64,000 nucleotides of DNA from an uncultured Gemmatimonadales bacterium (GTDB taxonomy: Bacteria; Gemmatimonadota; Gemmatimonadetes; Palauibacterales; Palauibacteraceae). Below the pieces are notes generated by a model. It worked only from the letters and a program-made list of their open reading frames with translations, did no database searches and was not told the DNA's origin. The DNA is taken from contig CAWANJ010000009.1 in the NCBI GenBank assembly GCA_963783385.1, forward strand, positions 832,001 to 896,000, read 5' to 3'. How positions within the stretch are numbered: position 1 is the first letter of the stretch; each line of letters opens with the position of its first letter. The position numbers and the translations under genes were made by a program. Below, one piece after another: positions 4,430-22,965 of the stretch.

Positions 4430-5124
4430 CCGTGGCCACGGCGCGCGGCCCCGCCCCCACACGCTGGAACCTCCTGCGCACGACCCGACGGCTGGGCCGC
4501 GTTCGCAAGGGAGCCGAGCTCCTCAGCCGGAAGCGGAGGGCGCTCGTGACCGAGCTGTTCGATCTCGCCCGTCCCGCGCTCGAGGATCGCACCCGGCTCG
4601 CCCGACGTGCCGCCACCGCCTACCCGGCCCTCCTGCGGGCGCTATCGGTCCGCGGCGGAGCCGACGCGCGCGCCCTGGGTTGGCCGACCCGGGACCCCGA
4701 GGTCGAAATGGAGCTCCACGAGACGTGGGGGGTCCGCGTGGCCGAGATCCTCGGAGCCCCGGGGATCCGGCGAACCCCGTTCGAGCGGGGCGTGGCGCCC
4801 GCCTGCACCGGCCCCTCGGTGACCGAGGCCGCCGACGAGTTCGAGGACTTCGTGGCGCTCCTCCTCGAGGCCGCCTCCCGGGAGACGCAGATCCGCAGGC
4901 TTGCCCGGGCCCTGGCGCGCACTTCGCGGCAGGTCAACACGCTCGAGCAGCGCGTGGGTCCGGACCTGGCGAGACAGGCGGCCGAGATCCGGCGCACGCT
5001 CGAGGAGCGCGAGCGTGAGGACCATTTGAGGTTGCGTCGGCTGGGCAAGAAGAAGGGCGGCCGGCCAGGGTCGCTGGAGGAAGCCGGCGCCGTCAGCCCT
5101 TCGGGCTCACCGCGTACCCGATGA
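4426..5124 (+). CDS. V/A-type ATP synthase subunit D
   Basis: PTRWNL, LLSRKR and RQVNTLE/LEERERE motifs; operon position. Confidence 0.92.
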
Positions 5125-6193
5125 TCGTGAGCGTGACCATGTAGACGATCATCGCGACGCCGAGCCAGATGAAGAGGCGCGTCCGCCGGCCCCGGACCGC
5201 CGGCCGGTCCAGCACGGGAACCAGGAACAGGAGCAGTCCGGCCAGCCCGAAGCCCAGGATGCCCACGGCCTCTCCCTCGAACCCGAGGATGTAGGCGGGC
5301 AGGTACTTCAGGGTCTGGAACATGAACATGAAGTACCACTCGGGCTTGATGCCCACCGGCGCCGATGCGAACGGGTCCGCCTTCTTCCCCAGCTCCGCGG
5401 GAAGGTAAGCCGCCAACGCGGCCAGAACGGCCAGCGCGGCGAGCCAGCCCAACAGGTCCCGGAGAAGGAAGTCCGGCAGGAACGGAATGCTGCGTGCCGG
5501 CTTCTGCTCGCTCTCCACCTCGGGCGGCACGCTCATCCCATGTCTCTGAACCAGGTACACGTGCAGACCCAGCACGAGGAAGACGAGCGCCGGCAGCACC
5601 GCGGTGTGGAGCGCATAGAATCGGGTGAGCGTCGCTCCCGTGACGTCATTCCCTCCTCGGAGCGCCCGCAGGAGGAACTGACCCACCCCCGGGACCACCC
5701 CGACGATTCGCGTACCCACCGTCGTGGCGAAGTAGGAGAGCTCGTTCCAGGGCAGCAGGTAGCCGGTGAAGCCGAGCGTCATCCCGAGCGCCAGCAACAC
5801 CACGCCCGTGAACCAGGTCAACTCCCGGGGCGGCCGGTAAGCCCTCAGGAGGAGCACGCTGAACATGTGGATGAACAGCGTGAAGATCATGAGGTTGGCC
5901 GCCCAGTGATGGATGGAGCGGACCAGCCAGCCGAAGTGCACGTCGGTCATCAGGAACTGGATCGACTCGTACGCGCCCTCGGCGTTGGGCCGGTAGTAGA
6001 ACAGGAGGAGGACGCCGGTCACGACCTGAACGATGAACAGGAAGAGGGTCATCCCGCCCAGGTAGTACCAGATCGTGTGGCGGTGGAGGGGGACCTGCTT
6101 CTTCTTCCCCAGGCGCTCCATCTCGCCCAGGATGCCCACGCGGTCGTCGAACCACGCCCGGAGAGCGCCCAACCGGCTGCCCGTGCCGCTCAT
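5093..6193 (-). CDS. Cytochrome b of a Rieske/cytochrome b complex (unsplit, canonical Qo site)
   Basis: Four heme-b His ([19 protein letters not shown]), TGYLLPW and PEWYF; no heme ci Cys (YYLGG). Confidence 0.95.
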
Positions 6194-6684
6194 CCGGCCT
6201 GTCCCCGGCTCACGACGATGCGGTCACCCTGCACGTTGACGACGTACTCCGCGAGCGGCTTGGGAGGCGGACCGGACACGTTGATCCCCTGGAGGTTGTA
6301 GTGCCCGTTGTGACACGGACACCAGATCTGGCTCAGGTCCGGTCGGTACTCGACGATGCATCCCAGGTGCGTGCACACGGCGGTGAAGGCGCGCAGGTCG
6401 CCCGACGGGGTGCGGATCAGAATGGCCGGCTTGTTTCCGAACTTGAAGATCTGGCCCGAATTGGGCTTGACGTCCTCGGGCTTGACGGACAGCGCCACGC
6501 TGTTCGCCGCCGATTGGGCCTCCTCCGGAGGGACAATGTAGCGAACGATGGGATAGAACACGGCCGCGGCGACGCCGCCCGCCCCGAGGCCCAGGATCCA
6601 GTTGACGACCTCGCGGCGGCTGGAGCCGTCACGCTGCGAGCCGCCCCGGCGCCCGTGCTCCTGGCGGACTTCCTCACCGTCCAT
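6190..6684 (-). CDS. Rieske [2Fe-2S] subunit (canonical)
   Basis: SRREVV Tat-like motif plus TM helix; CTHLGC and CPCHNG boxes intact; alternative GTG start at 6696. Confidence 0.95.
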
Positions 6685-8080
6685 GGCTTCCCTCACCTCC
6701 GTTCCCGCGCTGTTTTCCTTCTCCGGATCCGGCCGACCTTCCGGTCTTCCGGATCTTCAGCACCAGCATCGTGATGACCAGCAGGATCAGGGCTGCGGAG
6801 ACCGCCAGGCCCAGCCTGCGGACCTGGAGCTCCTGCAGCGCGTCCCGGCCCCGGGTGGCGGACTCGTCAGCCACCTCGAGTCCGGGATCGACCTTGGCCT
6901 TCACCGAGTCCACCACGAACGAGTGGATGGCGGCCCGCGCCTGGATGAGCGCGTTCCGGGCGTTGCTGAGGTTGGCCTGGGCCTGGCTCACCTCCATGCC
7001 GGCGTCCGCGGCACGACCGAGGATGGAGTCCGCCACCTGCATGCGGCCCGCCAGCGAGTCGATCAGCGAGCGCTCGCCCGTGGCCACCTGCGCGCCCTTG
7101 CTGTCGGCCGTGTGGCACCGACCGCAAACCGCGCTGTCCCCGACTCCCAGGAAGGCGTCCGTGGGCGCGTGGATCTCGTGGTTCCCGTGGCAGGTGACGC
7201 ATCCGGGAGCCCCGATCATGCTGAAGATCTCCGAGTGGAAGCTGGCCTCGAAGCGCCCGGCCTGTACGGCGTGACACTGACCGCACACGTTCACCACGCT
7301 GGAAACGCCCGGAGGGGTGGCTCCGTGGCTGCCGTGGCAGTCGTTGCACGTCGGAGCCGAGAGGTCGCCCTTCTGCGAGAGCGTCGCCCAGTGGACGCTC
7401 TTCTCATACTTCTGCATCTGGTCCGTCGGAATGCCGTACGGCTTCATGTAGTCCGCATCCGCGTGGCAGCGGCCACAGGTCCGGGCCACGTGGACGGGGT
7501 ACACGTTGGACTTGGGGTCCGACGGGGGGCGAATGGAGTGAATGTGGTGGCAGTCGGCGCACGTGGCCACGAGCGTGTCCCCGGCCGCGAGGCGGCGGCC
7601 GTGGACCGAAGTCCGGTACTCGGCGACCTGATCGACGCGCAGCGACGGGTTGAAGCGCTTCATGAACTGCGCGTCGGAATGGCAGCGTCCGCACAGCTCC
7701 GGGATGTCCTTCCGCGAGGGTATGCCGATGAACCCCTTCGCCGGATCCATGGCGCCGAAGCCGGAGTCCTTGTCATCGCCCCCGTGACAGGCGACGCACC
7801 CGAATCCCTTGCTCGCGTGGATGTCGTCGTGGAACTGCTTCGCCGGCGCCGAGAAGCGCTCGGAGTCGAGGGACCGGTGGCAGGTGACGCAGCTCTCCTC
7901 GGGCCGAGTCGCGCCCGTCGTGTCCGCGCTCGCCGCCCCCGTCGTGTCGGCGGCCGCGGCCGTGTCTCCTCGCGCCGGGGCGGCGGCCTCAGGGGTTCCC
8001 TGAGCGAAGATCTGTACGGTTCCGAAAGGCGATGCGGCCACAGCGAGGACGAAGCAAGCGAGTAGGGAGCGCACGCTCAT
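6674..8080 (-). CDS. Nonaheme cytochrome c with C-terminal membrane anchor
   Basis: Signal peptide from ATG 8080, 9 CXXCH motifs, helical region and C-terminal TM helix. Confidence 0.92.
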   Translation of the reverse strand: MSVRSLLACFVLAVAASPFGTVQIFAQGTPEAAAPARGDTAAAADTTGAASADTTGATRPEESCVTCHRSLDSERFSAPAKQFHDDIHASKGFGCVACHGGDDKDSGFGAMDPAKGFIGIPSRKDIPELCGRCHSDAQFMKRFNPSLRVDQVAEYRTSVHGRRLAAGDTLVATCADCHHIHSIRPPSDPKSNVYPVHVARTCGRCHADADYMKPYGIPTDQMQKYEKSVHWATLSQKGDLSAPTCNDCHGSHGATPPGVSSVVNVCGQCHAVQAGRFEASFHSEIFSMIGAPGCVTCHGNHEIHAPTDAFLGVGDSAVCGRCHTADSKGAQVATGERSLIDSLAGRMQVADSILGRAADAGMEVSQAQANLSNARNALIQARAAIHSFVVDSVKAKVDPGLEVADESATRGRDALQELQVRRLGLAVSAALILLVITMLVLKIRKTGRSAGSGEGKQRGNGGEGSHGR

Positions 8081-9306
8081 CGTGACCTCGCGCTGAGTGA
8101 CTGCAGGTAGGTCGCCACGTCGGCCGTCTCCTGGGCCGTCAGAGACGGCCACCTGGTCCCCGGCGCGGTCGTCCCCGACACGGTGAGGTGGCTCCACAGA
8201 GCGGCCAGGACCGCGGGGACCGAGCTCAGGTTACGCACCTTTCCCAGGTCGCCGGCCTGTCCTCGGCCCGCCCCGTCGAGCGTATGGCAGGCGAGGCATC
8301 CCTTGCCGCGGATCAGGGCCCGGCCCCTGGCGGCGTCCCCCGAGGTGGAGAAGTAGCGGGCGGAATACAGGTAGGCCACCAGGTCGGCCATCTCGTCCGG
8401 ACCCACGGACGGCACCGCCATGCCCCGCCGCTCCATCCCCGCGATCATCGCGGGAGCCTCGTTCCACATGGCCGCCGCGAAGTCGATGAGCGTCCGCCCG
8501 GTGTCACGGCCGGAGAAGTCCGGGCCCCTCTGGCCCGGGCCCGTCCCATCGTGGCAAGTCGCGCAGCCCTTGGCCTCGAAGACCTGTCGTCCCATCTCCG
8601 CGCTCCCCGGTAGCACGTAGAACTGCCCTTCGCGGGGCGCCTCGGCACGGGACTCGAGGAAGGAGATGAGGTCGAGGAGCTGCTGGCCCGTGAAGGTGGG
8701 ACGCCGAATGCCCAGCGTGCGCATCTTCCGCATCATGGCCGGCCCATGGTTCCACAGGGCGGCGGCCACCACGATGGGCGAGCCGAACTGGCTGAGGAAG
8801 TCCAGGTCCGGGCCCACGACCCCGCCGGACCCGTCCACCTGGTGACACCGTATGCACTGCTTCTCCGAGAACAGCCGCTCCCCCCGGAGCGGGTCTCCCT
8901 GCTGGCCGAACGCGTTCACCGTCGACAGGAAGGCGCTCAGGTCACCGGCCTCCTCCGGCGTGAGGCGGAACGGCTTGACATCCCGCGCGAGCATGCGCTC
9001 GCGCATGCCCGGGAGATGGTTCCAGATGTCGGCGGCGAGGCCGAAGAAGGTGGGCGGCCCCTCCAGCCGGCCCAGGTCGGGGCCGATGTGGGCACCGATG
9101 CCGTTGATGGCATGACAGCCCGAGCATCCCTTGGAGCCGAAGACCCGGGCGCCCGTCAGGGCGCTCTCTGCGGAGGGAGGCGGCTGCTGGGCCGCCAGGC
9201 GGCCCGCGGGAATCCATCCGAACACCGCCAGCACCACGATCCCCACGAAGCGCAGAAGGCGTGGCCACACGCGGTCCGTCACCGAGGTGCGCATGGGGTG
9301 CGTCAC
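8077..9306 (-). CDS. Cytochrome c with four class-I-like monoheme domains
   Basis: CSGCH, CIRCH, CATCH and CLACH, with recurring GPDL and WNH-P-M elements. Confidence 0.88.
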   Translation of the reverse strand: MTHPMRTSVTDRVWPRLLRFVGIVVLAVFGWIPAGRLAAQQPPPSAESALTGARVFGSKGCSGCHAINGIGAHIGPDLGRLEGPPTFFGLAADIWNHLPGMRERMLARDVKPFRLTPEEAGDLSAFLSTVNAFGQQGDPLRGERLFSEKQCIRCHQVDGSGGVVGPDLDFLSQFGSPIVVAAALWNHGPAMMRKMRTLGIRRPTFTGQQLLDLISFLESRAEAPREGQFYVLPGSAEMGRQVFEAKGCATCHDGTGPGQRGPDFSGRDTGRTLIDFAAAMWNEAPAMIAGMERRGMAVPSVGPDEMADLVAYLYSARYFSTSGDAARGRALIRGKGCLACHTLDGAGRGQAGDLGKVRNLSSVPAVLAALWSHLTVSGTTAPGTRWPSLTAQETADVATYLQSLSARSR

Positions 9307-10504: not shown

Positions 10505-12079
10505 ATGCGATCCGTTCGTTGGCTGTCACGTTTCCTGGCCGCCCTGGTTGTGGTCGGCGGTGTCCTGGCCACCGGCTGTACGGACCGGGTGACGGTCTTC
10601 AAGCAGAAGCCCTTCTTCGACCAGCCCCCGGCCGGGGCCGGTGACTTCCTGGGCTACAGCGACCAGACGACCCAGACCACGGTGTGCGGCGACTGCCACG
10701 TCGGCGTGCAGGCGTCCTGGATCAAGACCAAGCACGCCAGCGCGTGGGCGGACCTCGAGGCGTCGGGGCATGCCAACGACACCTGCCGGCAGTGCCACAG
10801 TGTCAACGAGTTCGGCAACGCGACCACCGACTCGGGCGGCTGGACCACGACCAAGGACGCCCGCTACCAGGACGTCCAGTGCGAGAGCTGCCACGGTCCG
10901 GGACTCCAGCACGTCGAGAACCCGGATGCGAGCCAGCCGATCCCGTCCCTGGCGGTCCAGACGGACACCACGAGCCTCACGAACGGGTGCGCCGAGTGCC
11001 ACAACGGAACGCACCATCCCGTTCGTGGAGCAGTGGGCGCTGTCGAAGCACGCCACGTTCATCAACGGCGGGCCCACCGGCCACGCGGCGACGACCGAGG
11101 CGTGCGTCGGCTGCCACACCGGCCAGGGCGCGCTGGACCGGTGGGGCGTGACCGGGCCTTACAAGGAAAAGGACGCGTCGACGCCGATGCCGATCGTGTG
11201 CGGCGTGTGCCACGACCCGCACGGGAGCCCGAACCTGCACCAGCTCCGCTTCCCGATCGAGACCAGCTCGATCGAGACGCACCTGTGCGCCCAGTGCCAC
11301 AACTACGAGACGAGCCCCAATGGGGCGAGCCCGTACGGCCTCTCGCCGATGGCGCCCGAGGCGCAGCTCCTGGTGGGGACGGCCGGGTACTTCCCGCCCA
11401 ACCTCGACCTCACGCAGGCCGACTCGATCCACGGCACGCACGGGAGCACGGCGAACCCGACCCTGTGCACGACGTGTCACGTGCACGCGTTCAGCACGAC
11501 GCTGAAGGACACGGACGCGCCGTTCTCCGCGGTGGGCCACACCTTCAACGCGCTCCCCTGCATGGAGAACGGGGTACCCTCGGGGAACCTGGACTGCGCG
11601 ATCACGACCACGGCCCGGAGCTTCGACGCCTGCACCACCTCGGGGTGTCACGGTGACGCCGCCGCGACGCGCTCGGTCCTGATCTCGCGGCTCGTACTCG
11701 TCAAGGAGCGCTCGGACACGCTCAAGGCGATGCTCGACCGGATCGATCCCAACGGCACCCAGGCCGGCGGGGCCATCGATCCGAACGACGGCGTGCTGAC
11801 GCCGGCCGAGGGAGCCTTGTTCAACTACAATCTGGCCAACTGGCTGGAGGAAGTGAACGGCCAGAACAACAGCCCGGCTACTACCCGAACGGGTTCACCA
11901 ACCAGTACGTGAGCCTGCTGGGCTCGACGGTCCACAACCCGTTCCTTCTGACGGCGCTGCTGGACGGGAGCATCAATCAGCTGGCGACCACATACGCCGC
12001 GGCCAGCACGAACCCGACGTACCTGCAGCAGATCAAGACCGAGATCACGGACATCAAGGCCAAGGGCCAGGTCCACTGA
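10505..12079 (+). CDS. Multiheme cytochrome c lipoprotein, 8 CXXCH + 1 CX4CH (two apparent frameshifts, ~11018 and ~11875)
   Basis: Lipobox LATGC; ORFs 10505 and 10641 join, and a third frame reads ...GSTVHNPFLLTALLDGSI...GQVH* to TGA 12077-12079. Confidence 0.85.
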
Positions 12080-12105
12080 GGCCGGTCCGTGCGAGACGCC
12101 AGCGA

Positions 12106-12134
12106 GGCGGGCGGCCCCGGTCGGGCCGCCCGTC
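12106..12134 (+). other. GC-rich stem-loop after the cytochrome lipoprotein gene (stabiliser or terminator)
   Basis: GGCGGGCGGCCC-CGGTC-GGGCCGCCCGTC; no U-tract. Confidence 0.45.
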
Positions 12135-12177
12135 GCCTGGTTCGAGCCGCCCCTCCAACCCTCACTTCACGCAGATC

Positions 12178-13692
12178 ATGACGACCAGGCCCGGGCGCCT
12201 ACGCCGCGTGGGAGCGAGCCGTGCGCGGTGGATCCGGCGAGAGCTGCTCTCGCTCGTCGTGCTCGCGGCCGCGAGCCCGGCCGGGCTCGCGGCGCAGGGC
12301 TACAGCGCCAACGTCCAAGCGGGCATGGCCTCGGTGAAGCTCCGCCCGCTGGTCCGTGACAGCGTGCCCGAGTCCACCGTGCCGGGCCAGGGCCTTCTGC
12401 GGCGGCTCCCCAACGGCATCGTGGCGACCTGCATCCCGGGCGAGTACTGCCGATGGTACGGATCGGGCGCCGTGCGCTCGCTCACGACCGTGACCCAGGA
12501 GATCCACCTGGCCGCATGGCCCGGGATCCGGGGGCTGGCGGTCCACGCTCACATGCGTGGCTGGTACGGAAGCGACGGGGAGTGGCCGCTTTCGAGCCAC
12601 AGGCTCGAGGTGATGACCGCCTACCTCAGCTACGACATCTCCCGCTTCCATTTCGAGGGCGGCCGTCAGGACCGATTCGATGGCCTCGGGTACCGGAACT
12701 TCGACGGGCTCTCGGCCCGCTGGGACGGACTCGAGCCCCTGTCGGTCGAGGCCTACGGCGGTTGGTACCTGGCCCCCAACCTGGATGCGCCGCTCACCAG
12801 CTCGCTGATCTCCGACGCCGAGCCCCTGGCCTCGTGAACGACCGCGGACTGGTGTTCGGGGGCGAGCTCCAGGCCCACGCGGGTCGTCGCCTCTCCGGTT
12901 CGGCGGTCTACCAGCGGGTGATCCGGACGGACCGCCTGGCGCTGTACTCGGAGCGCGCGGCGCTGACGGCTCACGCCTTTCTCGGGCCCGCCAGCATGGA
13001 CCTCTCCGGGCGGTACGACTTCTCCTTCCAGCAGCTCGATCAGGTCCACGCGCGCGTGTCGGTGCCGGTTCGACCTTGCCTGGAACTCACGGCCGAGTAC
13101 CGACACTACCGTCCCTTCTTCCCGCTGTGGACGATCTGGGGCGCGTTCAGCCCGGTCGGCTACGACGGCGGCAGCGGCAGCCTGACCTGGCGGGTCCCCT
13201 CCCTCGGTCTCGGCCTGCAGGCCGGCGGCGGATACCGCTGGTACGAGAACTCGAGCACGGCGGGCGGAAACCTGGCCGGCTTCAAGGACACGGGCTGGCG
13301 CGCCTTCGGCGGCGCCAACTGGGCCTCCGGCGACTTGGTTCGCCAACGGCCAATACCAGGCGGACATCGGGCCGGGAGCGGCGGACATGGGTGGAGACCT
13401 GTCCGCCGGACGTCGCTTCGGCGAGAGGAGCTGGCTGGCTCTCCGGGCCACGTCCACCCGCAGCTTCGGCGAGTATCGGCTCGGTGACCAGCGGCTCACC
13501 GGCGCGGGACTCATCGGGTCCGCGCCGGTCGGCGACCTCCTGTTAACGGGCAGCGCGGGATTCTACCGGCTGTCCTACACGAACCGGCCGGCGATCACGG
13601 ACTGGACGCAGTTCCGGATGTTCCTGGGGGTGGGATACCACTTCGGCAGCGAGCCGACGGTCGCGTCGGTCCTGAAGGGGTACGGCCAATGA
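12178..13692 (+). CDS. Putative outer-membrane beta-barrel porin (apparent frameshifts ~12832 and ~13336)
   Basis: Signal peptide; alternating aromatic/Gly beta-strand pattern across ORFs 12178, 12453 and 13387; near-terminal FLGVGYHF; lies between two multiheme cytochromes. Confidence 0.75.
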
Positions 13693-15418
13693 GCGACCGC
13701 TGGCCAAGACGGATCGTCCTCGCGCTCGCCTTCCTGACCCTGACCGGCGGGCCCTGGGCCGGGTCGGCCCTGGCCGGCCAGGACACGACGGTCGTCCAGC
13801 GCCCCTTCCCGCACGCCCGCCACGTCGGACTGTTCCCGACCTGCGACGGCTGCCATGCGGGGATCCTGAACGGAGACTCGGCGAAGTGGCTCTCGGTGGG
13901 GCCCGAGTTCTGCCAGGTTTGCCACGACGGCGAGACGGTGAAGAAGATCGAGTGGACGACGCCCGAGCACCCTCGGACGAACCTCCACTTCACGCACGCC
14001 AAGCACGCTGCCGGATTCGAGAAGCTCGGGGCGCCGCCCGCGAAGTGCCAGACCTGTCACCAGGCCGAAGGCGGCACGGAACGTCCATGCAGGTGGTGAT
14101 GGCCAGGCCGACGCTCTGCGGGGCATGCCACTCACCGGACCACCTGTCGCTCCAGAACGACTGCGCCACGTGTCACGATCCGCTCACCCGGGCGTCGAAC
14201 CTGAGGACGTCCGACATCGCGGGCTTGCCCAAGCCTCCCTGGCACGATTCGGCCGACTTCCTCTTCCAGCACGGAGCGGAGGCCTCCGCGTCGGGCGCGG
14301 TGTGCTCCGTGTGCCACGCCCGCCAGAGCTGCACCCGCTGCCACCTGAACGCGTCGCAGGTGGAGCCGATCCAGGCCCTCGGCCCGGATCCGCGCGTCGC
14401 ACAGCTGGTCCACGGACGAGCGGGCCGGTGGCCGAAGCCGCCCAGCCACCGCGACCGGGACTGGGTCCTGTCCCACGGAGCGACGGCCCGGACCTCGCTG
14501 TCCACGTGCGCCGACTGCCACGCGGCTTCGAGCTGTGCGACCTGCCACCGCGGGCCGCGGGCCGGCTTCCTTTCGCAGATGCCGCGGGCCGTCGAGGGAG
14601 GACCGTCCGGGGTTCGCATCCACGCGTCGCCGCCTGGACACGGACCGGACTTCGCCACGCAGCACGGGGCGACCGCGGCCTCGGGTGCCATCGAGTGCTC
14701 CGCGTGTCACACGAAGGTCCAGTGCACGGCCTGCCATCGCGGGGGCGTGCCCTCCTCGCCGGCCGTCCACGCCCCCGGCACGGGCGGATCGGGAGGAGGG
14801 AACGAGCCGATGAGCCTCGGGAGCCCGAGCGTGCAGCCCGGGGAGCCGACGACACCGACGGACGAACGTCGCCCGCTGCGGAGGCCCGAGCCGCGCCCCG
14901 TAGTGTGGTTCGCCTCGCTGCGGACGACCGTTCGGACGGGGCCACGAGCCGTGCAGGACACCACGCCCCCGGCGTCCACGTCCTCTCGAGAAGACGGAGG
15001 ACAGGCAACCCCGGCCCCGCGGACCGGCGGCTTCCACCCACCCGATTACGTGCTCCGACACGGTGCCGACGCCTTCTCGCGTCGAGTCCAGTGCTCGGAG
15101 TGCCATTCGGCCCAGGCATTCTGCCTGACCTGCCACGAGAAAATGGGGATCGGACGGGGGGGCACGGCCGGGAGCCCCGCCTTTCACGATGCGGAGCCCA
15201 ACTGGCTGATCACGCACGGGCGGGCCGCCCGACAGAATATCGAGACCTGCATCTCCTGTCACCAGCAGAGCTCCTGCCTTCGGTGTCACAGCGCGAAGTT
15301 CGGATTCCGCATCGACCCGCACGGTCCGGGCTTCGATCCCAACCGCATCGCCGACCGCAGCACGATCTCCTGCGGAATCTGCCACTTCTCGCTCCCCAAA
15401 GGCGGAGGCGGGGGCTGA
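13689..15418 (+). CDS. 16-heme periplasmic cytochrome c (apparent frameshift ~14088)
   Basis: Signal peptide; 3 CXXCH before and 13 after the shift; repeated HG..A...CxxCH-x4-CxxCH modules. Confidence 0.85.
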
Positions 15419-15713
15419 CCGAGGCGGGATGAGGGTTCGCGCCCGACCCTCACGACCGGAGCATTCCGGCGAATCCCCCCGGGGAGTGTCGCACGAAATG
15501 CGGCCTCCGCGACGGCCGGGTATACTGGCTGGCGCGTGCGAGGCCTTGGGTCGTCGAGATCGAAGAACGGGTCAATGGACGAACGAGGAGACCTGGTGGT
15601 GGACGGAATATGGGATGAGGGGATGGGTGGTTCGGGAGGAGTGAGTCGTCCGTCACGGAGCGGCACGTGAGCACGGGGCCGCTCGCAGCGCCGCCCCGGC
15701 AGGCGAGGTTGCC

Positions 15714-16184
15714 ATGGTAGAGCCCACGGCTGCGCCGCTGGAGACGGACCCGCCGACCTGGCGACTGGCCTTCGGGGAGTACGTCCTCGCGGGCAGTGTC
15801 GCCATGCTGCTCCTGGGTGCCCTCGCCGCGGTGGTGCTGTACCTGATTCCTTCCAGCCCTCTGCAGCTGGAGGAGCTCCAGCCAGCGTACCAGGTGGCGC
15901 CCGAGGCCAACTTTCCGGTCAACAGCAGTCGCATCGTCAACTGGGGCGATCAGGTCATCCTGGTCGTTCGCACCGGGGATCAGTCGTATTCGGCGCTGCA
16001 GGGCACGGCCCCGACGGACGGCTGCATCCTGAGCTGGAACGAGACGTCGCTCCGCATCGTGTCGCCCTGCACCCACCTGGTCTACGACCTCCGTGGCAAC
16101 GTGGTCCGCGGACTCTCGACCGTCCCCCTCCAGCGCTATCCAGTGTTCATCCGTGACGGCGTCGTATACGTGGCGAGGCCGTAG
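15714..16184 (+). CDS. Degenerate Rieske-fold protein lacking [2Fe-2S] ligands
   Basis: TM anchor plus Rieske-like domain (YDLRGNVVRG..PL..YPV); boxes read APTDGC and SPCTHL instead of CTHLGC and CPCHGS. Confidence 0.8.
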   Translation: MVEPTAAPLETDPPTWRLAFGEYVLAGSVAMLLLGALAAVVLYLIPSSPLQLEELQPAYQVAPEANFPVNSSRIVNWGDQVILVVRTGDQSYSALQGTAPTDGCILSWNETSLRIVSPCTHLVYDLRGNVVRGLSTVPLQRYPVFIRDGVVYVARP

Positions 16185-16185
16185 C

Positions 16186-17469
16186 ATGGTCCCCAGAGAT
16201 TCGAAGCCTGCCAGGGAGTGGTTCGCCCGACTGTGGGCGGACCTGAAGGCCAGCACGGACGCGAGCCTGCTGGCGATCCTGCGCTTCGTCGGCCTCCTGT
16301 ATGGGCCGATCGACACCCGACTGCCCATGGGCGCGGCCTTCCGCAAGGCCCTGCGGCACCGGCTCTCCCCGGAGGCCGGATGGCGTCAGGCGTTCGGCGG
16401 GATCGCCTACCTTCTGTTCATGATCCTCGTGGTCACCGGCGTGCTCCTGTCCTTCTACTACCGGCCTTCTACACAGGAGGCCTACCAGAGCATTCAGCAC
16501 ATCGTGTCGGGCGTCTCCTTCGGCTGGCTCATGCGGGACCTGCACGTGTGGGCCGCGAACCTGGTGGTGCTCGCGGCGCTGCTGCACATGGCCCGCGTGT
16601 TCTTCGGTGCGGCCTACAAGCCTCCGCGCGAGACCAACTGGATCGTGGGAGTGCTCCTCCTGTTCAGCGTGTTCGCGTTCGGTGCGACGGGCTACCTCCT
16701 GCCGTGGGACCAGTGGTCGTACTGGACGGTGACCGAGGGACTGGACATCCTCGCCCGCGCACCCATCGTGGGAGGCTGGCTGGTCAGGGTCCTGCGGGCC
16801 GACCCGATCGTGTCCGGCGCCACCTTGAGCCGCTTCTTCGCCATCCACGTGATCGTGCTGCCCTGGCTGGTGCTCGGCCTGCTGGCCCTGCACTTCGCCC
16901 TGGTACGGAAGCATGGTGTCGCACCCCGCGTGAGCGGGACGCGGACGGGCGGGACGGGCGTTCCGTTCTTCCCGCACCACTTCCTGCGGATGGTGATCGC
17001 CGGAACGCTCGTCGTGGCCGTGGCCGTGACGGCCGCCCTCCTGTTCCCGCGTCCGGTCGCTGCTCCGGCCAACCCCGCGCAGCCGCCGGGAATGCTGTTC
17101 TCGACCTGGATCCTGGCCGACGTTTCTCGAGCCCTGATCTATTATCTCGGGGGCTGGGGCTTCGGCGCGTTCCTGCTGCTCGGAGCCGGGATGGTGCTCC
17201 TGCCGATCTTCGATCGTTCTCCCGAGAGGCGGCTTCGCCGCCGGCCGATCGTGGCCGCCCTGGGCGTCCTCTTCTTCCTGACCTTCGCGACCGCCTGGGG
17301 CGCCGGGTGGCGACTCCGCTCCGTTCCGACGACGACCTCGGGTGAGCTGACGCCGTTCCAGAAGCAGCCCACCGGGGCTACGCCGGGCGCTCCCCTGCCA
17401 CGCATCGCGCCCGCCAGCCGACCGGCGACGTCCGGATCGGACACGACGAATCCCGGGGGCGCGCCATGA
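16186..17469 (+). CDS. Second cytochrome b, Qo motif degenerate
   Basis: ATG at 16186; four His retained (DLHVWAAN..LHM, AIHV..LHF) and TGYLLPWDQ; PEWY position reads STWI. Confidence 0.9.
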   Translation: MVPRDSKPAREWFARLWADLKASTDASLLAILRFVGLLYGPIDTRLPMGAAFRKALRHRLSPEAGWRQAFGGIAYLLFMILVVTGVLLSFYYRPSTQEAYQSIQHIVSGVSFGWLMRDLHVWAANLVVLAALLHMARVFFGAAYKPPRETNWIVGVLLLFSVFAFGATGYLLPWDQWSYWTVTEGLDILARAPIVGGWLVRVLRADPIVSGATLSRFFAIHVIVLPWLVLGLLALHFALVRKHGVAPRVSGTRTGGTGVPFFPHHFLRMVIAGTLVVAVAVTAALLFPRPVAAPANPAQPPGMLFSTWILADVSRALIYYLGGWGFGAFLLLGAGMVLLPIFDRSPERRLRRRPIVAALGVLFFLTFATAWGAGWRLRSVPTTTSGELTPFQKQPTGATPGAPLPRIAPASRPATSGSDTTNPGGAP

Positions 17470-18758
17470 CGACCGCGCTGACGGCGCTGCTCACAGCCAC
17501 CCTCCTCGCTGCGCCCGCGGCGGGAAGGCCGGCTCCGGCTCGCCCTGCCGGACGTACGGCTCCGACGCTTCCGGCGCAGGTCCCCGGAGCCATGGCCGAC
17601 ACGGCCAACGGCTGCCTGGCCTGCCACGCGGCGCAGCGGCGGGCCGCGACCGAAGGGGTCCATGCCGAGCACGGCGTCACCTGCGTGAGCTGTCACGGCG
17701 GCGACCCGGCCGCCGTCACCCTGCCCCGGGGACACAGCGGGCACTTCGTCGGCAAGCCGGACAAGGCCGCCACCGCGGAACTGTGCGGCTCGTGCCACTC
17801 GGACCCGGACAAGATGCGGGAATACGGCCTGCCCACGGGACAACTGGCCCAGTTCCGCTCGAGCAAGCACGGCCAGTTGTTGTTCGGGCAGCACAACACG
17901 GACGTTCCGACCTGCACGGACTGTCACGGAACGCATGTCATCTACCCGCCCTACGACGCCCGGAGCCGCGTCTATCCGACGAACATTCCGGGGACCTGCG
18001 CGAGCTGCCACTCGGACCCGAAGCTCATGGCGAAGTACCACATTCGCACGGACCAGTTCGCGCAGTTTCGCAACAGCGCCCACGGCGTCGCCCTGTTCCA
18101 GAACCAGAACTTCGCGGCGCCCACGTGCGTCGGGTGCCACGGCGCGCACTCCGAGCTGCCGCCCACGGTGACCGAGATCGCCAGCGTGTGCGGGCGCTGT
18201 CACGTGCTCGTCGAGCAGGAGTTCGCGAAGGGGCCCCATGGCGCCGCCGCCCGTGCCGGGAAGCTGCCGGGCTGCCTGGCGTGCCACAGCAACCACGGCA
18301 CCGAACGTGTCGCGGCGGACAGCATCAGCGCCACCTGCGACCGATGTCACGGATCCAACTCCCAGGTCCACCAGTTCGCGGTCGACATCCAGCACCGGGT
18401 CGTGCAGGCCACGGCGGACATCCAGTCGGCCGAGCGGGCGATCGACCAGATGGCCGCCGCCGGCCAGCGGGTCGGCTACTATCGCTTCCGATTCAGGTCG
18501 GGGCTCACGTACTTCCGCGAGATCGCCCAGAAGCAGCACCGCCTCAACCTGGACACGCTCGACGACCTCGCTCGTCGGGTGCGGTCCGTGTCGATCGACC
18601 TCGACTCGCGGGCGAAGGCGACCCAGGAGAGCCGTTGGGAGCACAGGCTCCTGCTCCTTCCGGTGTGGTTCCTGTCGCTGTCCGCGGTCGCGCTCGCCCT
18701 GCTGGCCCTGCGCGGTCTCCGGAAGACGAACCGGGACTCGGACTCCTCCGGGCCATAG
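17466..18758 (+). CDS. Nonaheme cytochrome c with C-terminal anchor, paralog of 6674-8080
   Basis: 9 CXXCH with the same spacing; shared SxVYP..TC..CH.D..M..Y.I.TDQ and APTC motifs. Confidence 0.92.
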   Translation: MTTALTALLTATLLAAPAAGRPAPARPAGRTAPTLPAQVPGAMADTANGCLACHAAQRRAATEGVHAEHGVTCVSCHGGDPAAVTLPRGHSGHFVGKPDKAATAELCGSCHSDPDKMREYGLPTGQLAQFRSSKHGQLLFGQHNTDVPTCTDCHGTHVIYPPYDARSRVYPTNIPGTCASCHSDPKLMAKYHIRTDQFAQFRNSAHGVALFQNQNFAAPTCVGCHGAHSELPPTVTEIASVCGRCHVLVEQEFAKGPHGAAARAGKLPGCLACHSNHGTERVAADSISATCDRCHGSNSQVHQFAVDIQHRVVQATADIQSAERAIDQMAAAGQRVGYYRFRFRSGLTYFREIAQKQHRLNLDTLDDLARRVRSVSIDLDSRAKATQESRWEHRLLLLPVWFLSLSAVALALLALRGLRKTNRDSDSSGP

Positions 18759-18761
18759 CCT

Positions 18762-20786
18762 ATGTGGCCCACCGTACGCCGGCGGATCGCGCAATGGGGC
18801 GTCGTCCTGCTCCCGATCGTCATTCTGGCGGTCATTCTGATCAGCGTGGGCACGATCGGCTTCGTGGAGGTCTCCAGCCAGCCGTGGTTCTGCAAGAGCT
18901 GCCACATCATGAAGCCGTACTACCAGTCGTGGTCCACCTCTTCACACCGCGACGTAGCCTGCATCAAGTGCCACATCCCGCCCGGGGTGAAGTCCGAGGT
19001 CAGCCAGAAGATCCAGGCCGCCAACATGGTGGTGAAGTATTTCACCGGCGCCTACAGCACGCGGCCCTGGGCGGAGATCAGCGACGCTTCCTGTCTGCGC
19101 TCGGGCTGCCACGCCAGCCGGCTCATCGAGGGTGCGGTGGACTTCCACGGTGTCCGGTTCGATCACGCCCGGCATCTGGGGGAGATTCGGCGTGGCATGC
19201 AGCTCCACTGCACGAGCTGCCATTCCCAGATCGTCCAGGGAACGCACATCGCCGTGACGGAAGGCACCTGCTTCCTGTGTCACTTCAAGGACCGGCCGGC
19301 GGGCCAGCCACTGGGCGGCTGCACCGGGTGCCACCCCTCGCCGCCCAAGGTGACCTCTCCAGAGGGATTCGTGATCGATCACCCCCAGTTCGTGCGGGAC
19401 CGGATCGACTGTCTGTCCTGCCACAACGAGGTCACGCACGGAACCGGCGACGTCGACGAGGCGCGCTGCGTCAGCTGTCACAACGAGCCCGATCGTCTGG
19501 CCAAGCTCAACGAGCCTACGCTCCTGCACACCGTTCACGTCACGCAGCACAACATCGCCTGCATCCAGTGCCACACTACCATCGAGCACCGGATCGTGTC
19601 GCTGACGACGACCGTGGAGCTGGACTGCCGGAGCTGTCACAAGTCCGTGCACCTGGACCAGCAGAGGTTGTTCGCCGGCATCGGCGGGCACGGGGTGGAG
19701 CGTACGCCGAGCTCCATGTACAAGGCGCGCGTCTCGTGCGTGGCGTGTCACGACCAGGCCAAGAAGCTCCCGGCCCACGACACCGTGAACATGGCCAGCC
19801 AGTCCTCCTGCATGTCCTGCCACGGCATCCGGTACGCCAACGTGCTTCCCAGCTGGCAGAAGGGCATGAAGCGCAAGGTCGGCCTGGTGGCGCCCATCGT
19901 CGCCGCGGCCCGCGCGGCGGCCGCCGCAGTGCCGCTCGGCCGCCGCGGACCGGCGGACAGCCTCCTGAACATGGCCCAGGACAACCTGGAGTTCGTCCGC
20001 GAGGGCAAGGGCGCCCACAACATCGTCTACGCGGACAAGCTACTGCGGGCCGCCCTCGGCATGGTGCGCGAGGCCGTGAAGGAGGAGCACCTGCCCTACC
20101 GCGTGCCGGCGGTCGACCTGGGCCCGCCGTTGAGCGAGAACATATGCCTGCAGTGCCACCTGGGGATCGAGCAGCAGAAGGGCACGTTCCAGGGCGCGTC
20201 GTTCGACCACACGGCCCACGTGCTGCGCGCCGGGCTGCAGTGCAACGATTGCCACACGCCGTTCTCCAACCACGGCGGCATCACCCTCGCGTCGACCGCG
20301 AGCTGCAACGCTTGCCACCACCCGGTGGTGCAGCCCCGGAACTGCGCCACCTGCCACGAGGGACCGGGTGGGGCGCCGTCCAGGCCCATAACCCTGCCCC
20401 AGGGCATCTTCCCGCATCGGCCTCACGTCGCGGCGAACATCGCCTGCACGACCTGCCACACGGCACCGATGATGAACGCGCGGACCCTCCAGTGCGACAA
20501 CTGTCATGCACAGCACCACCAGCCGACGGTCACCTGCCTGAACTGCCATCGGGGCGGCGTCCTGGCCCTGCACGATCAGCAGAACCACGTGTTGTGTGCG
20601 CAGTGTCATACCTCGGTCCCGGCGTTGGCGCACTGGACGCGGCAGATATGCACGGTGTGCCACGCGGACAAGACCGATCACAACCCGGGACGAGCCTGCA
20701 GCGTGTGTCATAGAGTGCCGGCCATGGGAACGTCCCGCACCGCCGTGCCGGGCGCCGGCGCGGAGGAGCCACCTCAAGTCCACTAG
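18762..20786 (+). CDS. NapC/NirT-type membrane-anchored cytochrome with 21 CXXCH + 1 CX4CH
   Basis: N-terminal TM helix, SSQPWFCKSCHIM..YYQSW..SSH..VACIKCH signature, long heme-bearing extension. Confidence 0.9.
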   Translation: MWPTVRRRIAQWGVVLLPIVILAVILISVGTIGFVEVSSQPWFCKSCHIMKPYYQSWSTSSHRDVACIKCHIPPGVKSEVSQKIQAANMVVKYFTGAYSTRPWAEISDASCLRSGCHASRLIEGAVDFHGVRFDHARHLGEIRRGMQLHCTSCHSQIVQGTHIAVTEGTCFLCHFKDRPAGQPLGGCTGCHPSPPKVTSPEGFVIDHPQFVRDRIDCLSCHNEVTHGTGDVDEARCVSCHNEPDRLAKLNEPTLLHTVHVTQHNIACIQCHTTIEHRIVSLTTTVELDCRSCHKSVHLDQQRLFAGIGGHGVERTPSSMYKARVSCVACHDQAKKLPAHDTVNMASQSSCMSCHGIRYANVLPSWQKGMKRKVGLVAPIVAAARAAAAAVPLGRRGPADSLLNMAQDNLEFVREGKGAHNIVYADKLLRAALGMVREAVKEEHLPYRVPAVDLGPPLSENICLQCHLGIEQQKGTFQGASFDHTAHVLRAGLQCNDCHTPFSNHGGITLASTASCNACHHPVVQPRNCATCHEGPGGAPSRPITLPQGIFPHRPHVAANIACTTCHTAPMMNARTLQCDNCHAQHHQPTVTCLNCHRGGVLALHDQQNHVLCAQCHTSVPALAHWTRQICTVCHADKTDHNPGRACSVCHRVPAMGTSRTAVPGAGAEEPPQVH

Positions 20787-20803: not shown

Positions 20804-22117
20804 ATGCGCTCCGTGGTCCGATTCGTCTGGATTCTGGGCGCGCTCGCGCCGGGGCTCGTCGGAGTCCGGACTGTCTCGGCGCAGGCGAGCAGGGCGACGT
20901 CCACGCAGGTCGTGGAGTGCACCAAGTGCCACGCCGACCACGACCTCCTCGCCGCCAACGCCACCGGCCAGCGACAGGACTCTGCCCTCTACGTAACCAC
21001 GGCGGTCCTGGACAGCTCCGTGCACCGGTCGTTGCAGTGCACGGACTGTCACCGGGGCTTCGAGGCCGGCTTCCCCCACCAGGTCAGCCAGGTGGTGGTG
21101 CCCTGCTCCACCTGCCACGAGAAGGAGGGCCGGAACTGGGAGGCCTCGATCCACGCCCGGAACGCCGAGACGGTGGGCGACGCGCCCACCTGCGTGGGGT
21201 GCCACGGAAGCCACCGGGTCCTCGCCACCACCGACCCGCGGTCACCGACGTATCCGCTGAACGTGGCCGGCCTGTGCAGCCGCTGCCACGCGGACCCGCG
21301 CATCATCGGCCGCTACTTCACGGGCCCCGGCTACCAGGAGGCCCGCATCGCCGCCACGGCCTTCCCCAAGAGCGTGCACGGGATCGCGCTCACCAGGGAC
21401 GGACTCGTGGTATCGGCCACCTGCTCGGACTGTCACCGTGCGCACCTCATCCTGCCGCCCGACTCGGCGCGCTCCTCGGTCAACCGGGCCAACATCCCGC
21501 AGACCTGCGGGAAGTGCCACGCCGGCGTCGTCAAGGTGTACGAGGCCTCCGCGCACGGGCCCGACTACCCGCCGCAGCCGGGGATCGCCGAGGGGCATTC
21601 GCGGCCCGTGTGCATCGACTGTCACTCGGCGCACGAGATCGTCCGCGCCGACCGGCCGGCATGGCAGCGCAGTACGGTCCAGAAGTGCGGCAGCTGCCAC
21701 GAGCACCTGTACGAGACCTACTTCGAGACCTACCACGGACAGGTGACGCACCTGGGATCCAACCTGGCCGCCAAGTGCAGCGACTGCCACACGGCGCATG
21801 ACATGCGCTCGCCCACGGACCCGAAGTCCACGGTGTTCGCGGCCAACCTGGTCCAGACCTGCGGCCAGTGCCACGCGGGCGCCAACGCCAACTTCGTCAA
21901 GTACTACGCGCACGGTGACCCGACGCAGCGGACGCGGTACCCGCTCCTGTACTGGCCGTGGCTGCTCATGACCGGGCTGCTGGTGAGCGTGATGGCCTTC
22001 TTCGTGATCCACAGCGTGCTGTGGCTGATCCGGAACGGCATCGAGCACCGGCGGGGCGGACGCGGCTCCGGCGGGCCGGCGGCGGGACCACCGACGAGCG
22101 GAGGGAGGGAGTCATGA
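20804..22117 (+). CDS. 11-heme cytochrome c, CbcL-like c-type portion with C-terminal TM
   Basis: 11 CXXCH, TYHGQ..LG...AAKCSDCH, C-terminal helix FFVIHSVLWLIR. Confidence 0.85.
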   Translation: MRSVVRFVWILGALAPGLVGVRTVSAQASRATSTQVVECTKCHADHDLLAANATGQRQDSALYVTTAVLDSSVHRSLQCTDCHRGFEAGFPHQVSQVVVPCSTCHEKEGRNWEASIHARNAETVGDAPTCVGCHGSHRVLATTDPRSPTYPLNVAGLCSRCHADPRIIGRYFTGPGYQEARIAATAFPKSVHGIALTRDGLVVSATCSDCHRAHLILPPDSARSSVNRANIPQTCGKCHAGVVKVYEASAHGPDYPPQPGIAEGHSRPVCIDCHSAHEIVRADRPAWQRSTVQKCGSCHEHLYETYFETYHGQVTHLGSNLAAKCSDCHTAHDMRSPTDPKSTVFAANLVQTCGQCHAGANANFVKYYAHGDPTQRTRYPLLYWPWLLMTGLLVSVMAFFVIHSVLWLIRNGIEHRRGGRGSGGPAAGPPTSGGRES

Positions 22118-22965
22118 CGCGGCGTACGATGGACGCGGCCGGCCGGGGCCAGGGCCCGTACATCCGGCGCTTCACCGGCTTCCAGCGGACCCTCCACGTC
22201 ATGGTGATCGTGTCCTTCCTCGGCCTGGTCGCCACCGGGCTGCCGCTGCGCTTCGCGGCCGCGCCCTGGGCTCGCGGCGTCATGGACCTGTTCGGGGGCC
22301 CGGTGGCCGCGGGGCTCTTCCACCGGTTCTGCGCCATCATCACGTTCGGCTACTTCCTCGCGCACGTCATCCAGATCACCTACCGGCTGGTGAAGGTCGA
22401 GGGACCGAGGAAGCTGCTGTGGGGCCCGGACTCCATGGTACCGCAGCCCAAGGACATCCGGGACCTGATCCAGATGTTCAAGTGGTTCTTCGGCAAGGCC
22501 CCGCACCCCGAGTTCGAGCGCTTCAGCTACATGGAGAAGTTCGATTACTGGGCGGTGTTCTGGGGGGTGGCCATCATCGGCACGTCGGGGCTGTTCCTGT
22601 GGTTCCCGACCTTCTTCGCCCACATGATGCCCGGGTGGGTGTTCAACATCGCGACCATCGTGCACGGTGACGAGGCGCTGCTGGCCACGTCGTTCATCTT
22701 CACGATCCACTTCTTCAACGTGCACCTGCGGCCGGAGAAGTTCCCCATCGACACGGTGATCTTCACGGGCCGGGCCACCGCGGAGTACATGCAGGAGGAG
22801 CACGGCCTCGAGTACGAGCGTCTGCGGCGCGACGGCCGGGTCGAGGAGCGGTTGGTGCCGCCGGCCTCGCGCGCGGCCTACCTGTGGTCGGTGACGGTGG
22901 GCTTCATCGCCGTCGGGATCGGCACGGTGCTCATCGTCCTCGTCCTCTGGGCCCTCCTGGCATGA
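22114..22965 (+). CDS. FdnI/HydC-like b-type cytochrome, CbcL-like membrane portion
   Basis: ATG overlaps the upstream TGA; QRTLH, FHR, FSYMEKFDYWAVFWG, VHGDEALLA..FIFTIHFFN. Confidence 0.88.
   Translation: MTRRTMDAAGRGQGPYIRRFTGFQRTLHVMVIVSFLGLVATGLPLRFAAAPWARGVMDLFGGPVAAGLFHRFCAIITFGYFLAHVIQITYRLVKVEGPRKLLWGPDSMVPQPKDIRDLIQMFKWFFGKAPHPEFERFSYMEKFDYWAVFWGVAIIGTSGLFLWFPTFFAHMMPGWVFNIATIVHGDEALLATSFIFTIHFFNVHLRPEKFPIDTVIFTGRATAEYMQEEHGLEYERLRRDGRVEERLVPPASRAAYLWSVTVGFIAVGIGTVLIVLVLWALLA

Follow-up and report, generated by a model that had tools for sequence, protein, structure and literature searches.

The 64,000-nucleotide stretch of DNA analysed here (the window), which has ~70% G+C and comes from an uncultured Gemmatimonadales bacterium (assembly GCA_963783385.1, contig CAWANJ010000009.1, positions 832,001 to 896,000), encodes a complete paralogue of a complex-III-type enzyme that has neither the Rieske iron-sulfur cluster nor the PEWY motif of cytochrome b, and that is kept in this state under strong selection across a bacterial class. 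Its first gene encodes a Rieske-fold protein devoid of cluster ligands (pR hereafter) and its second a cytochrome b without PEWY (cytb2), and they are followed by genes for cytochromes c with 9, 21 and 11 haems (MHC_A, MHC_B and MHC_C, respectively). Both the Rieske cluster and the PEWY loop are regarded as defining for energy conservation in complex-III-type enzymes. Judging from the sequences, we consider that this module is probably a non-bifurcating link between the menaquinone pool and the multihaem cytochromes, in which the Rieske-fold subunit would have no redox role. The initial annotation of this DNA had put forward two arrangements, and one of them, a quinone module that does not bifurcate and is connected to multihaem cytochromes, is favoured by the conserved gene order described below. 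The host genome (3.54 Mb in 9 contigs, 92% complete) contains only two cytochrome b genes, both of them inside the window.

The relationship of pR to ordinary Rieske proteins is clear from its alignment to the canonical Rieske protein of the same window (6190-6696), with which it shares 28% identity (BLASTP, E 1e-11) without gaps. In this alignment all four ligands of the 2Fe-2S cluster are replaced (C108 by A99, H110 by T101, C126 by S117 and H129 by T120), and the two cysteines of the Rieske disulfide are retained (C113 as C104 and C128 as C119). The protein has a single N-terminal membrane helix (residues 24-42) that is not preceded by a pair of arginines, whereas the canonical Rieske protein has SRRE at this place, so that translation and alignment bear out the earlier description of a ligand-less protein that keeps the disulfide cysteines and has no twin-arginine motif. 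The same loss extends to the family, since among the 103 homologues with a complete N-terminus only 6 have two arginines ahead of the membrane helix and the other 97 do not. This fits a protein that no longer needs to be exported in a folded, cofactor-loaded form through the twin-arginine translocation (Tat) route. Profile scores also remain below their cut-offs, both for PF00355 (Rieske; 17.1 vs 20.3) and for PF13806 (Rieske_2; 24.5 vs 27), and the PetC models give 34-36 bits against cut-offs of 154-250. The names under which these proteins are stored in databases, "Rieske (2Fe-2S) protein" or "ubiquinol-cytochrome c reductase iron-sulfur subunit", overstate what the sequence of pR supports. 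The fold itself is predicted with high confidence to be that of a Rieske protein: the AlphaFold2 model built from 27 orthologues has a predicted local distance difference test score (pLDDT) of 88.6, and its top Foldseek match is 8hn2_A, the soluble Rieske domain of a b6f-type complex from Chlorobaculum (E 9e-9, template modelling (TM) score of 0.82 on the target, root-mean-square deviation of 1.4 Å over 98 columns), which is also the top match of a profile search of the sequences in the PDB.

The distribution of this protein was followed in two samples of genomes. In sample A, 41 related genomes were searched, yielding 27 pR orthologues with 43-93% identity. Sample B comprised 401 genomes spread evenly across the phylum, and with an orthologue threshold of E <= 1e-55 it gave pR in 41 of them, belonging to six families of a single class; 18 of these 41 loci, from families of the class beyond sample A, were retrieved. 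None of the four ligands is present in any of the 27 orthologues of sample A, all of which keep both cysteines, and the same state is found in the 18 further loci. A wider set of 113 database homologues confirms it, as no cluster ligand is kept in any of them, whereas C104 and C119 are present in 113/113 each. Position 99 is either Ala (58/113) or Ser (55/113), position 101 is never His, S117 is found in 112 of the 113, position 120 is again never His, and an aspartate that is new in box I, D102, appears in 106. When 1.84 billion representative proteins were searched with a profile, ~14 clusters of full-length pR were recovered, all of them ligand-less, beyond which there is an abrupt change to ordinary CxH/CxxH proteins.

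The second gene tells a matching story. The translation of cytb2 begins at the ATG at 16186, one base past the TAG stop of pR, and not at the GTG at 16093 where the mechanical open reading frame (ORF) starts; with this correction of its start, the four-histidine cytochrome b with STWI in place of PEWY that had been described is indeed what the gene encodes. It scores 164 bits with PF00033, against a cut-off of 27.2, and shares 48% identity with the canonical cytochrome b across the 200 residues of the four-helix core. All four haem histidines are present (H120, H134, H221 and H236), and these ligands of the low- and high-potential haems (bL and bH) in helices B and D are retained in all of the 44 cytb2 sequences collected. 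None of these 44 has PEWY and none has Glu at the second position of the motif, whereas the Trp is kept in 44/44. The 26 complete cytb2 proteins of sample A all read [ST][ST]W[VI], and the family motif at this site can be written as [ST][ST]W[VI]xxDV. Natural variants of PEWY such as PDWY and PVWY have been published, and we know of no published variant that reads S/T-S/T-W. Furthermore, new residues have become conserved near the former quinol-oxidising (Qo) site, namely E184 (41/44), D312 (41/44) and H265 (43/44), and conservation in the two proteins is among its highest in the former cluster loops of pR and in the former PEWY loop of cytb2. The C-terminal part of cytb2 has no match to PF00032 and consists of 3-4 extra hydrophobic helices with a weak match to ExtQ (21.7 bits).

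Such a pattern might be expected from neither a sequencing artefact nor a decaying gene. The ratio of non-synonymous to synonymous substitution rates (dN/dS; Nei-Gojobori, two within-genus comparisons per protein) is 0.099 and 0.104 for pR and 0.094 and 0.119 for cytb2, as compared with 0.134 and 0.121 for the canonical Rieske protein and 0.108 and 0.099 for the canonical cytochrome b. The genes of pR and cytb2 are covered by contigs from all four public runs (from four studies) with zero indels, and one independent contig shows 0 differences across 15754-17121, both boxes included. The DNA is present at salt-marsh and sediment sites, and no RNA run was found that contains 15400-19000. A read error or a lineage-specific decay is ruled out by the 113 homologues, the dN/dS of ~0.10 and the independent contigs. 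These values, well below 1, indicate that the losses are conserved under purifying selection and are not the product of decay, and with ligand loss in 113/113, PEWY loss in 44/44 and a dN/dS of ~0.10 for both proteins, like that of the canonical pair, the proposal of selection rather than decay made in the initial annotation stands. In syntenic homologues, where it had suggested testing whether both losses co-occur, the four ligands are absent from all of the 27 + 18 loci and PEWY from all 44 cytb2 sequences.

The losses affect two subunits, and the duplication from which the module arose involved three. MHC_A can be aligned with the 9-haem cytochrome of the canonical locus (6674-8197) at 30% identity (E 8e-60), with matching haem spacing, and both are anchored at their C-termini. 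The two cytochromes are hence paralogous over their full length, which means that a whole three-subunit complex was duplicated and not just two genes. The genes downstream of cytb2 run in the same direction, with stops and starts that overlap or nearly abut, and this order is conserved: cytb2 comes directly after pR in the 27 loci of sample A (one of them cut at the end of its contig) and in the 18 further loci, and in 17 of the 18 retrieved loci the 9-haem and 21-haem genes then follow. The 11-haem gene, together with the gene for an FdnI-like cytochrome b with which it is paired, is contiguous or nearby in most of these 18. Genomes with the operon include three of the sister family that are complete in a single contig (G028, G030 and G031).

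How the module originated is suggested by two genomes from another class of the phylum, represented by loci L056 and L057, which have the gene order Rieske, cytochrome b, 9-haem and 20-haem cytochrome. Identity to the genes of the window amounts to 34% for the 9-haem genes of these two genomes and to 37-38% for their 20-haem genes. The Rieske proteins of these outgroup operons are intact, with CPHKGC / CPCHAA and CTHKGC / CPCHAA as cluster boxes and with RRSF/RRTF, and the cytochrome b of L056 reads PEWY. Given such an intact outgroup operon, the simplest reading is that cluster, Tat signal and PEWY were lost once, in an old matched loss at the base of the class Gemmatimonadetes. As far as can be deduced from these comparisons, ligand loss and PEWY loss then occur together through one event inherited many times and not through many independent events.

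With no iron-sulfur acceptor, a Rieske-dependent bifurcating Q cycle such as that of bc1 or b6f is impossible, and with both b haems retained, transmembrane electron transfer would still be the purpose of a pR/cytb2 complex. From the gene content and the conserved residues, we infer that the subunits assemble into one complex in which electrons would pass from a menaquinone site to bH, then to bL, to the c-type haems of MHC_A and onward, along a wire that would lead to a periplasmic and outer-membrane multihaem network (MHC_B, MHC_C, and the barrel and the 16-haem cytochrome encoded upstream). The quinone might be handled at the retained pocket on the negative (N) side of the membrane or at the remodelled one on the positive (P) side; each of them is a possibility, and neither is one that we would call probable. 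If quinol were oxidised on the N side, the membrane potential would aid the export of electrons, which would suit acceptors that offer a low driving force, and if low-potential periplasmic donors fed the same wire, the resulting redox loop would generate a proton-motive force. As for pR, it would have no redox function but would keep the dimer together and cap the former Qo pocket, its Asp102 perhaps relaying protons. A prediction of the complex of pR and cytb2 reached a score of 0.40, as compared with 0.00 for the best control, in runs that share at least 95% of their contacts and with a pLDDT of the partner of at least 78. This supports their association weakly: in the calibration, the pass mark was reached by 58/80 solved complexes and by 2/110 mismatched pairs, but passes at scores <= 0.60 comprised 7/80 solved complexes and both of the passing mismatches. 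Furthermore, since there are solved bc complexes, the score may merely reflect the likeness of the pair to them.

A more general proposal is that the module represents a third way in which the Rieske/cytochrome b scaffold can work, beside the Q cycles of bc1 and b6f. Bifurcation would have been abandoned, bH and bL would serve as a pure wire from the menaquinone site to ~40-60 c-type haems and an outer-membrane conduit, and pR would be a non-redox lid whose Asp102 takes part in proton handling. In this full form we hold the proposal only tentatively, as the less likely outcome. In a bolder variant, the cysteine pair of pR, placed at the quinone pocket, would perform thiol-quinone chemistry of the DsbB/VKOR type.

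Several observations count against a non-bifurcating link of this kind, or against the history proposed for it. None of the solved bc complexes accounts for the passage of electrons from quinol to c-type haems in the absence of an iron-sulfur centre, and the true quinol dehydrogenase could instead be the NrfH-like head of MHC_B, in which case cytb2 would be left with no assigned role. The retained N-side pocket of cytb2 is a putative one, its residues being assigned by comparison with bc1 and b6f. Conservation of the operon has one exception, the locus L058 (G418:C1:933636-948049), in a complete-looking genome, where no 9-haem or 21-haem genes lie directly downstream. Regarding the origin, the PEWY region was not located in L057, whose cytochrome b ORF ends after helix D. 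The cytochrome b tree separates cytb2 (44 sequences), the canonical type (5) and the outgroup (2) with strong support, but it is unrooted and consists of three long-branched groups, which it cannot order; the place of the outgroup operon as ancestor comes from the shared gene order and from the 9-haem and 20/21-haem homologues, and not from the tree.

Other explanations have to be weighed against the non-bifurcating link, the closest of which keeps quinol oxidation at its old place: menaquinol would be oxidised at the remodelled Qo site, passing electrons directly to a c-type haem of MHC_A and to bL, with Asp102 of pR and Glu184 and Asp312 of cytb2 accepting the protons. The high conservation of the former Qo loops in both proteins, each of which has gained acidic residues, is what this explanation would account for, but there is no model for how a c-type haem would reach a pocket that is normally filled by the Rieske head, and we regard it as unlikely. 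The module could also be a catalytically dead relic that is maintained just as a scaffold, as proposed for the deranged bc1 of Acidocella, where, in the available part of that report, the pair of a degenerate cytochrome b and a ligand-less, disulfide-keeping Rieske protein is read as structural (PMC10715153). The loss of the cluster, of the Tat motif and of PEWY would be consistent with lost catalysis. Nonetheless, a dead enzyme would hardly keep its four haem ligands in 44/44 cytb2, fix new residues at the former Qo loops and show a dN/dS as low as that of its working paralogue; its partner genes encode redox proteins (9, 21 and 11 haems) in a conserved order, and in two genomes cytb2 is the sole bc-type cytochrome b. 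On these grounds we give the relic a small chance of being right.

The remaining two explanations were already contained in the initial annotation and are further weakened by the survey of relatives. According to one of them, a Qo-silent monomer of pR and cytb2 would form a heterodimer with a canonical Rieske/cytochrome b monomer and exchange electrons with it from bL to bL. In the window, as in many relatives (e.g., L042 and L050), the two loci are indeed neighbours on the same contig, at a distance of ~9-10 kb, cytb2 and the canonical cytochrome b are 48% identical across the four-helix core, and by hand count 30/41 pR-bearing genomes of sample B also hold a canonical-type cytochrome b, just as 30/39 genomes of the class with a canonical-type cytochrome b hold pR. 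This co-occurrence is weak evidence because related genomes are not independent samples, and the other 11 of the 41 pR genomes, all of them 90-100% complete, lack a canonical-type cytochrome b, which speaks against the heterodimer as a general mechanism. Furthermore, cytb2 is the sole match to PF00033 in G226 (96% complete, 4 contigs) and in G303 (93% complete), so that an obligatory heterodimer is excluded for those genomes, and the paralogue, which comes with a c1-like 9-haem subunit of its own, thus looks complete by itself. Mixed dimers are possible in genomes that hold both cytochromes b, although as an explanation of the module the heterodimer seems to us decidedly improbable. Even less can be said for the idea that pR still binds a cluster by means of other ligands, for example the shifted His in SPCTH. 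His121 does lie beside the lost His position in pR of the window, but that position is His in just 25/113 homologues and Tyr in 82/113, the family has no invariant His and no invariant Cys beyond the disulfide pair, and 97/103 homologues have lost the Tat motif, on which the export of a folded, cofactor-bearing protein depends. The residue counts in the 113 homologues and the invariants of the family contradict such a cluster, which we would expect to find only with the greatest surprise.

In comparison with known systems, the module is nearest to menaquinol-type complexes of the 'green clade' (b6f-like), including the canonical copy of the window (5093-9306, minus strand). Three homologous subunits are common to them: a Rieske-fold protein with a membrane anchor, a cytochrome b that has four haem histidines and a fused part that may correspond to subunit IV, and a 9-haem cytochrome c anchored at its C-terminus. 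Unlike them, the module lacks the 2Fe-2S ligands, the Tat motif and PEWY, and has the extra 21-haem and 11-haem partners. Modules that combine b-type and multihaem c-type haems without a Rieske protein occur in Geobacter (CbcL, CbcBA and ImcH), where they carry electrons from menaquinone to periplasmic carriers with no Q cycle; these have no Rieske-fold subunit, whereas the module of the window retains its fold, its anchor and its disulfide cysteines. Rieske folds without a cluster are represented by NirD proteins, which are soluble and cytoplasmic and have NirB as partner. Some likeness to them can be seen, since the best Pfam match of pR is Rieske_2 (PF13806) and the NirD-like structures 4aiv and 3c0d are among its fold matches, but pR is membrane-anchored, partnered with a cytochrome b and closest to the Rieske proteins of b6f.

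Acidocella and Acidiphilium offer the most direct precedent, a bc1 complex called 'deranged' (Degli Esposti et al. 2023, PMC10715153). As described in the accessible portion of that paper, it comprises a Rieske protein that has lost three or four ligands and kept the disulfide pair, a cytochrome b without the bH histidines and an ordinary c1, encoded in a petABC operon, and its authors consider it non-functional or structural, thought to stabilise another respiratory complex. What both cases have in common is a ligand-less Rieske protein that keeps the disulfide cysteines, beside a cytochrome b with lost conserved residues, in genes that have been retained. The module differs from the Acidocella complex, to the extent that the available text characterises the latter, in that it keeps the four His and loses PEWY, has 9-haem and other multihaem partners and is usually a second copy; moreover, selection on it is as strong as on the working copy, while that of Acidocella is read as non-functional or structural (PMC10715153). 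A similar gene content is found in ExtMNOPQS of Geobacter sulfurreducens (Cbc6-type), for which the portion of PMC5877670 available to us lists a Rieske protein (ExtO, annotated as an iron-sulfur protein), a cytochrome b (ExtP), a membrane protein (ExtQ) and multihaem cytochromes beside the porin-like ExtI; in both systems, on that partial account, Rieske, cytochrome b and multihaem c genes are clustered beside an outer-membrane porin-like gene. ExtP is also the best NCBIfam match of cytb2 (219 bits vs a cut-off of 290; the canonical cytochrome b reaches 214), but with a score below the cut-off and about the same score for the canonical copy this is a likeness and not orthology. Multihaem acceptors for early Rieske/cytochrome b complexes have been proposed by Dibrova et al. 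2013, as cited in the part of PMC5317091 that was available.

The earlier statement that no description of this arrangement was known holds in part. Literature searches, whose coverage lacked most subscription journals and supplements, returned no description of the Gemmatimonadota module, although the Acidocella case (PMC10715153, as far as its accessible text goes) is a partial precedent, and a cluster-less Rieske protein in itself is already published. Some genomes have no bc-type cytochrome b other than that of the module. An active module would mean that electron transfer between quinones and cytochromes can take place on this scaffold in a different manner, and the module offers a natural "cluster-free" control for the mechanism of bifurcation, that is, a natural experiment on the need for the Rieske cluster. 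Gemmatimonadota are an abundant and poorly studied phylum of soils and sediments, and an active module would add an inner-membrane component to their candidate machinery for extracellular electron transfer.

Table 1. Genes and motifs of the pR/cytb2 operon, of its upstream neighbourhood and of the canonical locus (window positions).
Feature	Position	Strand	Basis or remark
pR, Rieske-fold subunit, 156 aa	15714..16184	+	translation, BLASTP, AF2/Foldseek, Pfam
pR former cluster box I, APTDGC (canonical CTHLGC), residues 99-104	16008..16025	+	
pR former cluster box II, SPCTHL (canonical CPCHNG), residues 117-122	16062..16079	+	
cytb2, cytochrome b paralogue, 427 aa, ~8 hydrophobic helices	16186..17469	+	Pfam Cytochrome_B 164 bits
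STWI at PEWY position of cytb2, residues 306-309	17101..17112	+	
MHC_A, 9-haem cytochrome c, signal peptide and C-terminal membrane anchor (c1-like)	17466..18758	+	
MHC_B, 21-haem cytochrome c, N-terminal membrane helix, NrfH/NapC-like first module	18762..20786	+	NrfH 59 bits, below cut-off
MHC_C, 11-haem cytochrome c, C-terminal membrane anchor	20804..22117	+	
Dihaem cytochrome b, b561/FdnI type, paired with MHC_C	22114..22965	+	
Upstream multihaem cytochrome c gene; relatives have 8-9 haems	10505..11912	+	frame broken near 11017
Outer-membrane beta-barrel gene	12178..13653	+	frame broken near 12831 and 13333
16-haem cytochrome c gene (3 + 13 CXXCH)	13689..15418	+	frame broken near 14079
Canonical cytochrome b with PEWY	5093..6193	-	
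Canonical Rieske protein, CTHLGC / CPCHNG, RR motif	6190..6696	-	
9-haem cytochrome c of the canonical locus, C-terminal anchor	6674..8197	-	
Cytochrome c with four class-I domains, canonical locus	8077..9306	-	

The genes upstream of pR (Table 1) resemble, by their content, a porin-cytochrome conduit. The barrel gene encodes a product of ~500 residues that belongs to no Pfam family and is predicted to form a large outer-membrane barrel; the model of an ortholog (L046:11130-12656) has a signal helix and ~24 strands, and its Foldseek matches are outer-membrane barrels, with MtrB at rank 8. The barrel is followed by the 16-haem cytochrome, an arrangement that is conserved near the operon in several relatives. 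In the window, the G+C content at third codon positions (GC3) reveals that the three upstream genes (10505-15418) change frame near 11017, 12831, 13333 and 14079, and the contigs of other public runs have 1-base or 2-base differences at these very places, which would restore single frames, with the closest public run agreeing with the window at 14079. The frame breaks are probably assembly indel errors, or in part real strain frameshifts. According to GC3, the mechanical ORF at 14125-15432 lies in the wrong frame.

At the downstream end, the genes for MHC_C and the b561/FdnI-type cytochrome b (20804-22965) overlap by four bases (ATGA). Relatives have this pair either directly adjoining the operon or close to it and divergent, and from this arrangement it appears to be a separate quinone-linked module. 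The respiratory island as a whole is flanked on one side by a gene for subunit D of a V/A-type ATP synthase (4426-5124, plus strand; Pfam ATP-synt_D 123 bits) and on the other by a gene for a B12-binding radical SAM protein (23151-24740, plus strand).

Some variation was also seen in the canonical-type genes of other genomes. Two pR-bearing genomes have a damaged canonical-type cytochrome b, with an in-frame TGA in one case (G056:C2:1229483-1230550) and split in two pieces in the other (G327:C76:55136-56166), which may be due to decay or to assembly errors. A third type of Rieske/cytochrome b pair exists in the phylum (G086:C4:555013-556458, partly in L051; G113:C42; G242:C13), whose cytochrome b is ~40-45% identical to the canonical one and is encoded by ORFs of 490-690 residues; in G086 this pair is ~10 kb downstream of the cluster-less operon.

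Finally, the library of representative proteins contains other Rieske-like lineages with partial changes of the ligands (P0021, P0023, P0026, P0030, P0043, P0051, P0066 and P0102). Among them is a family of ~216 residues that reads CTMEDC ... CPCHGC, its first His being replaced by Met, and further altered boxes in the library read CTSEVC, CPRTGC/CPCDYS and SYTEEC. Judging by these motifs, the Rieske site may have degenerated or been altered on several occasions.

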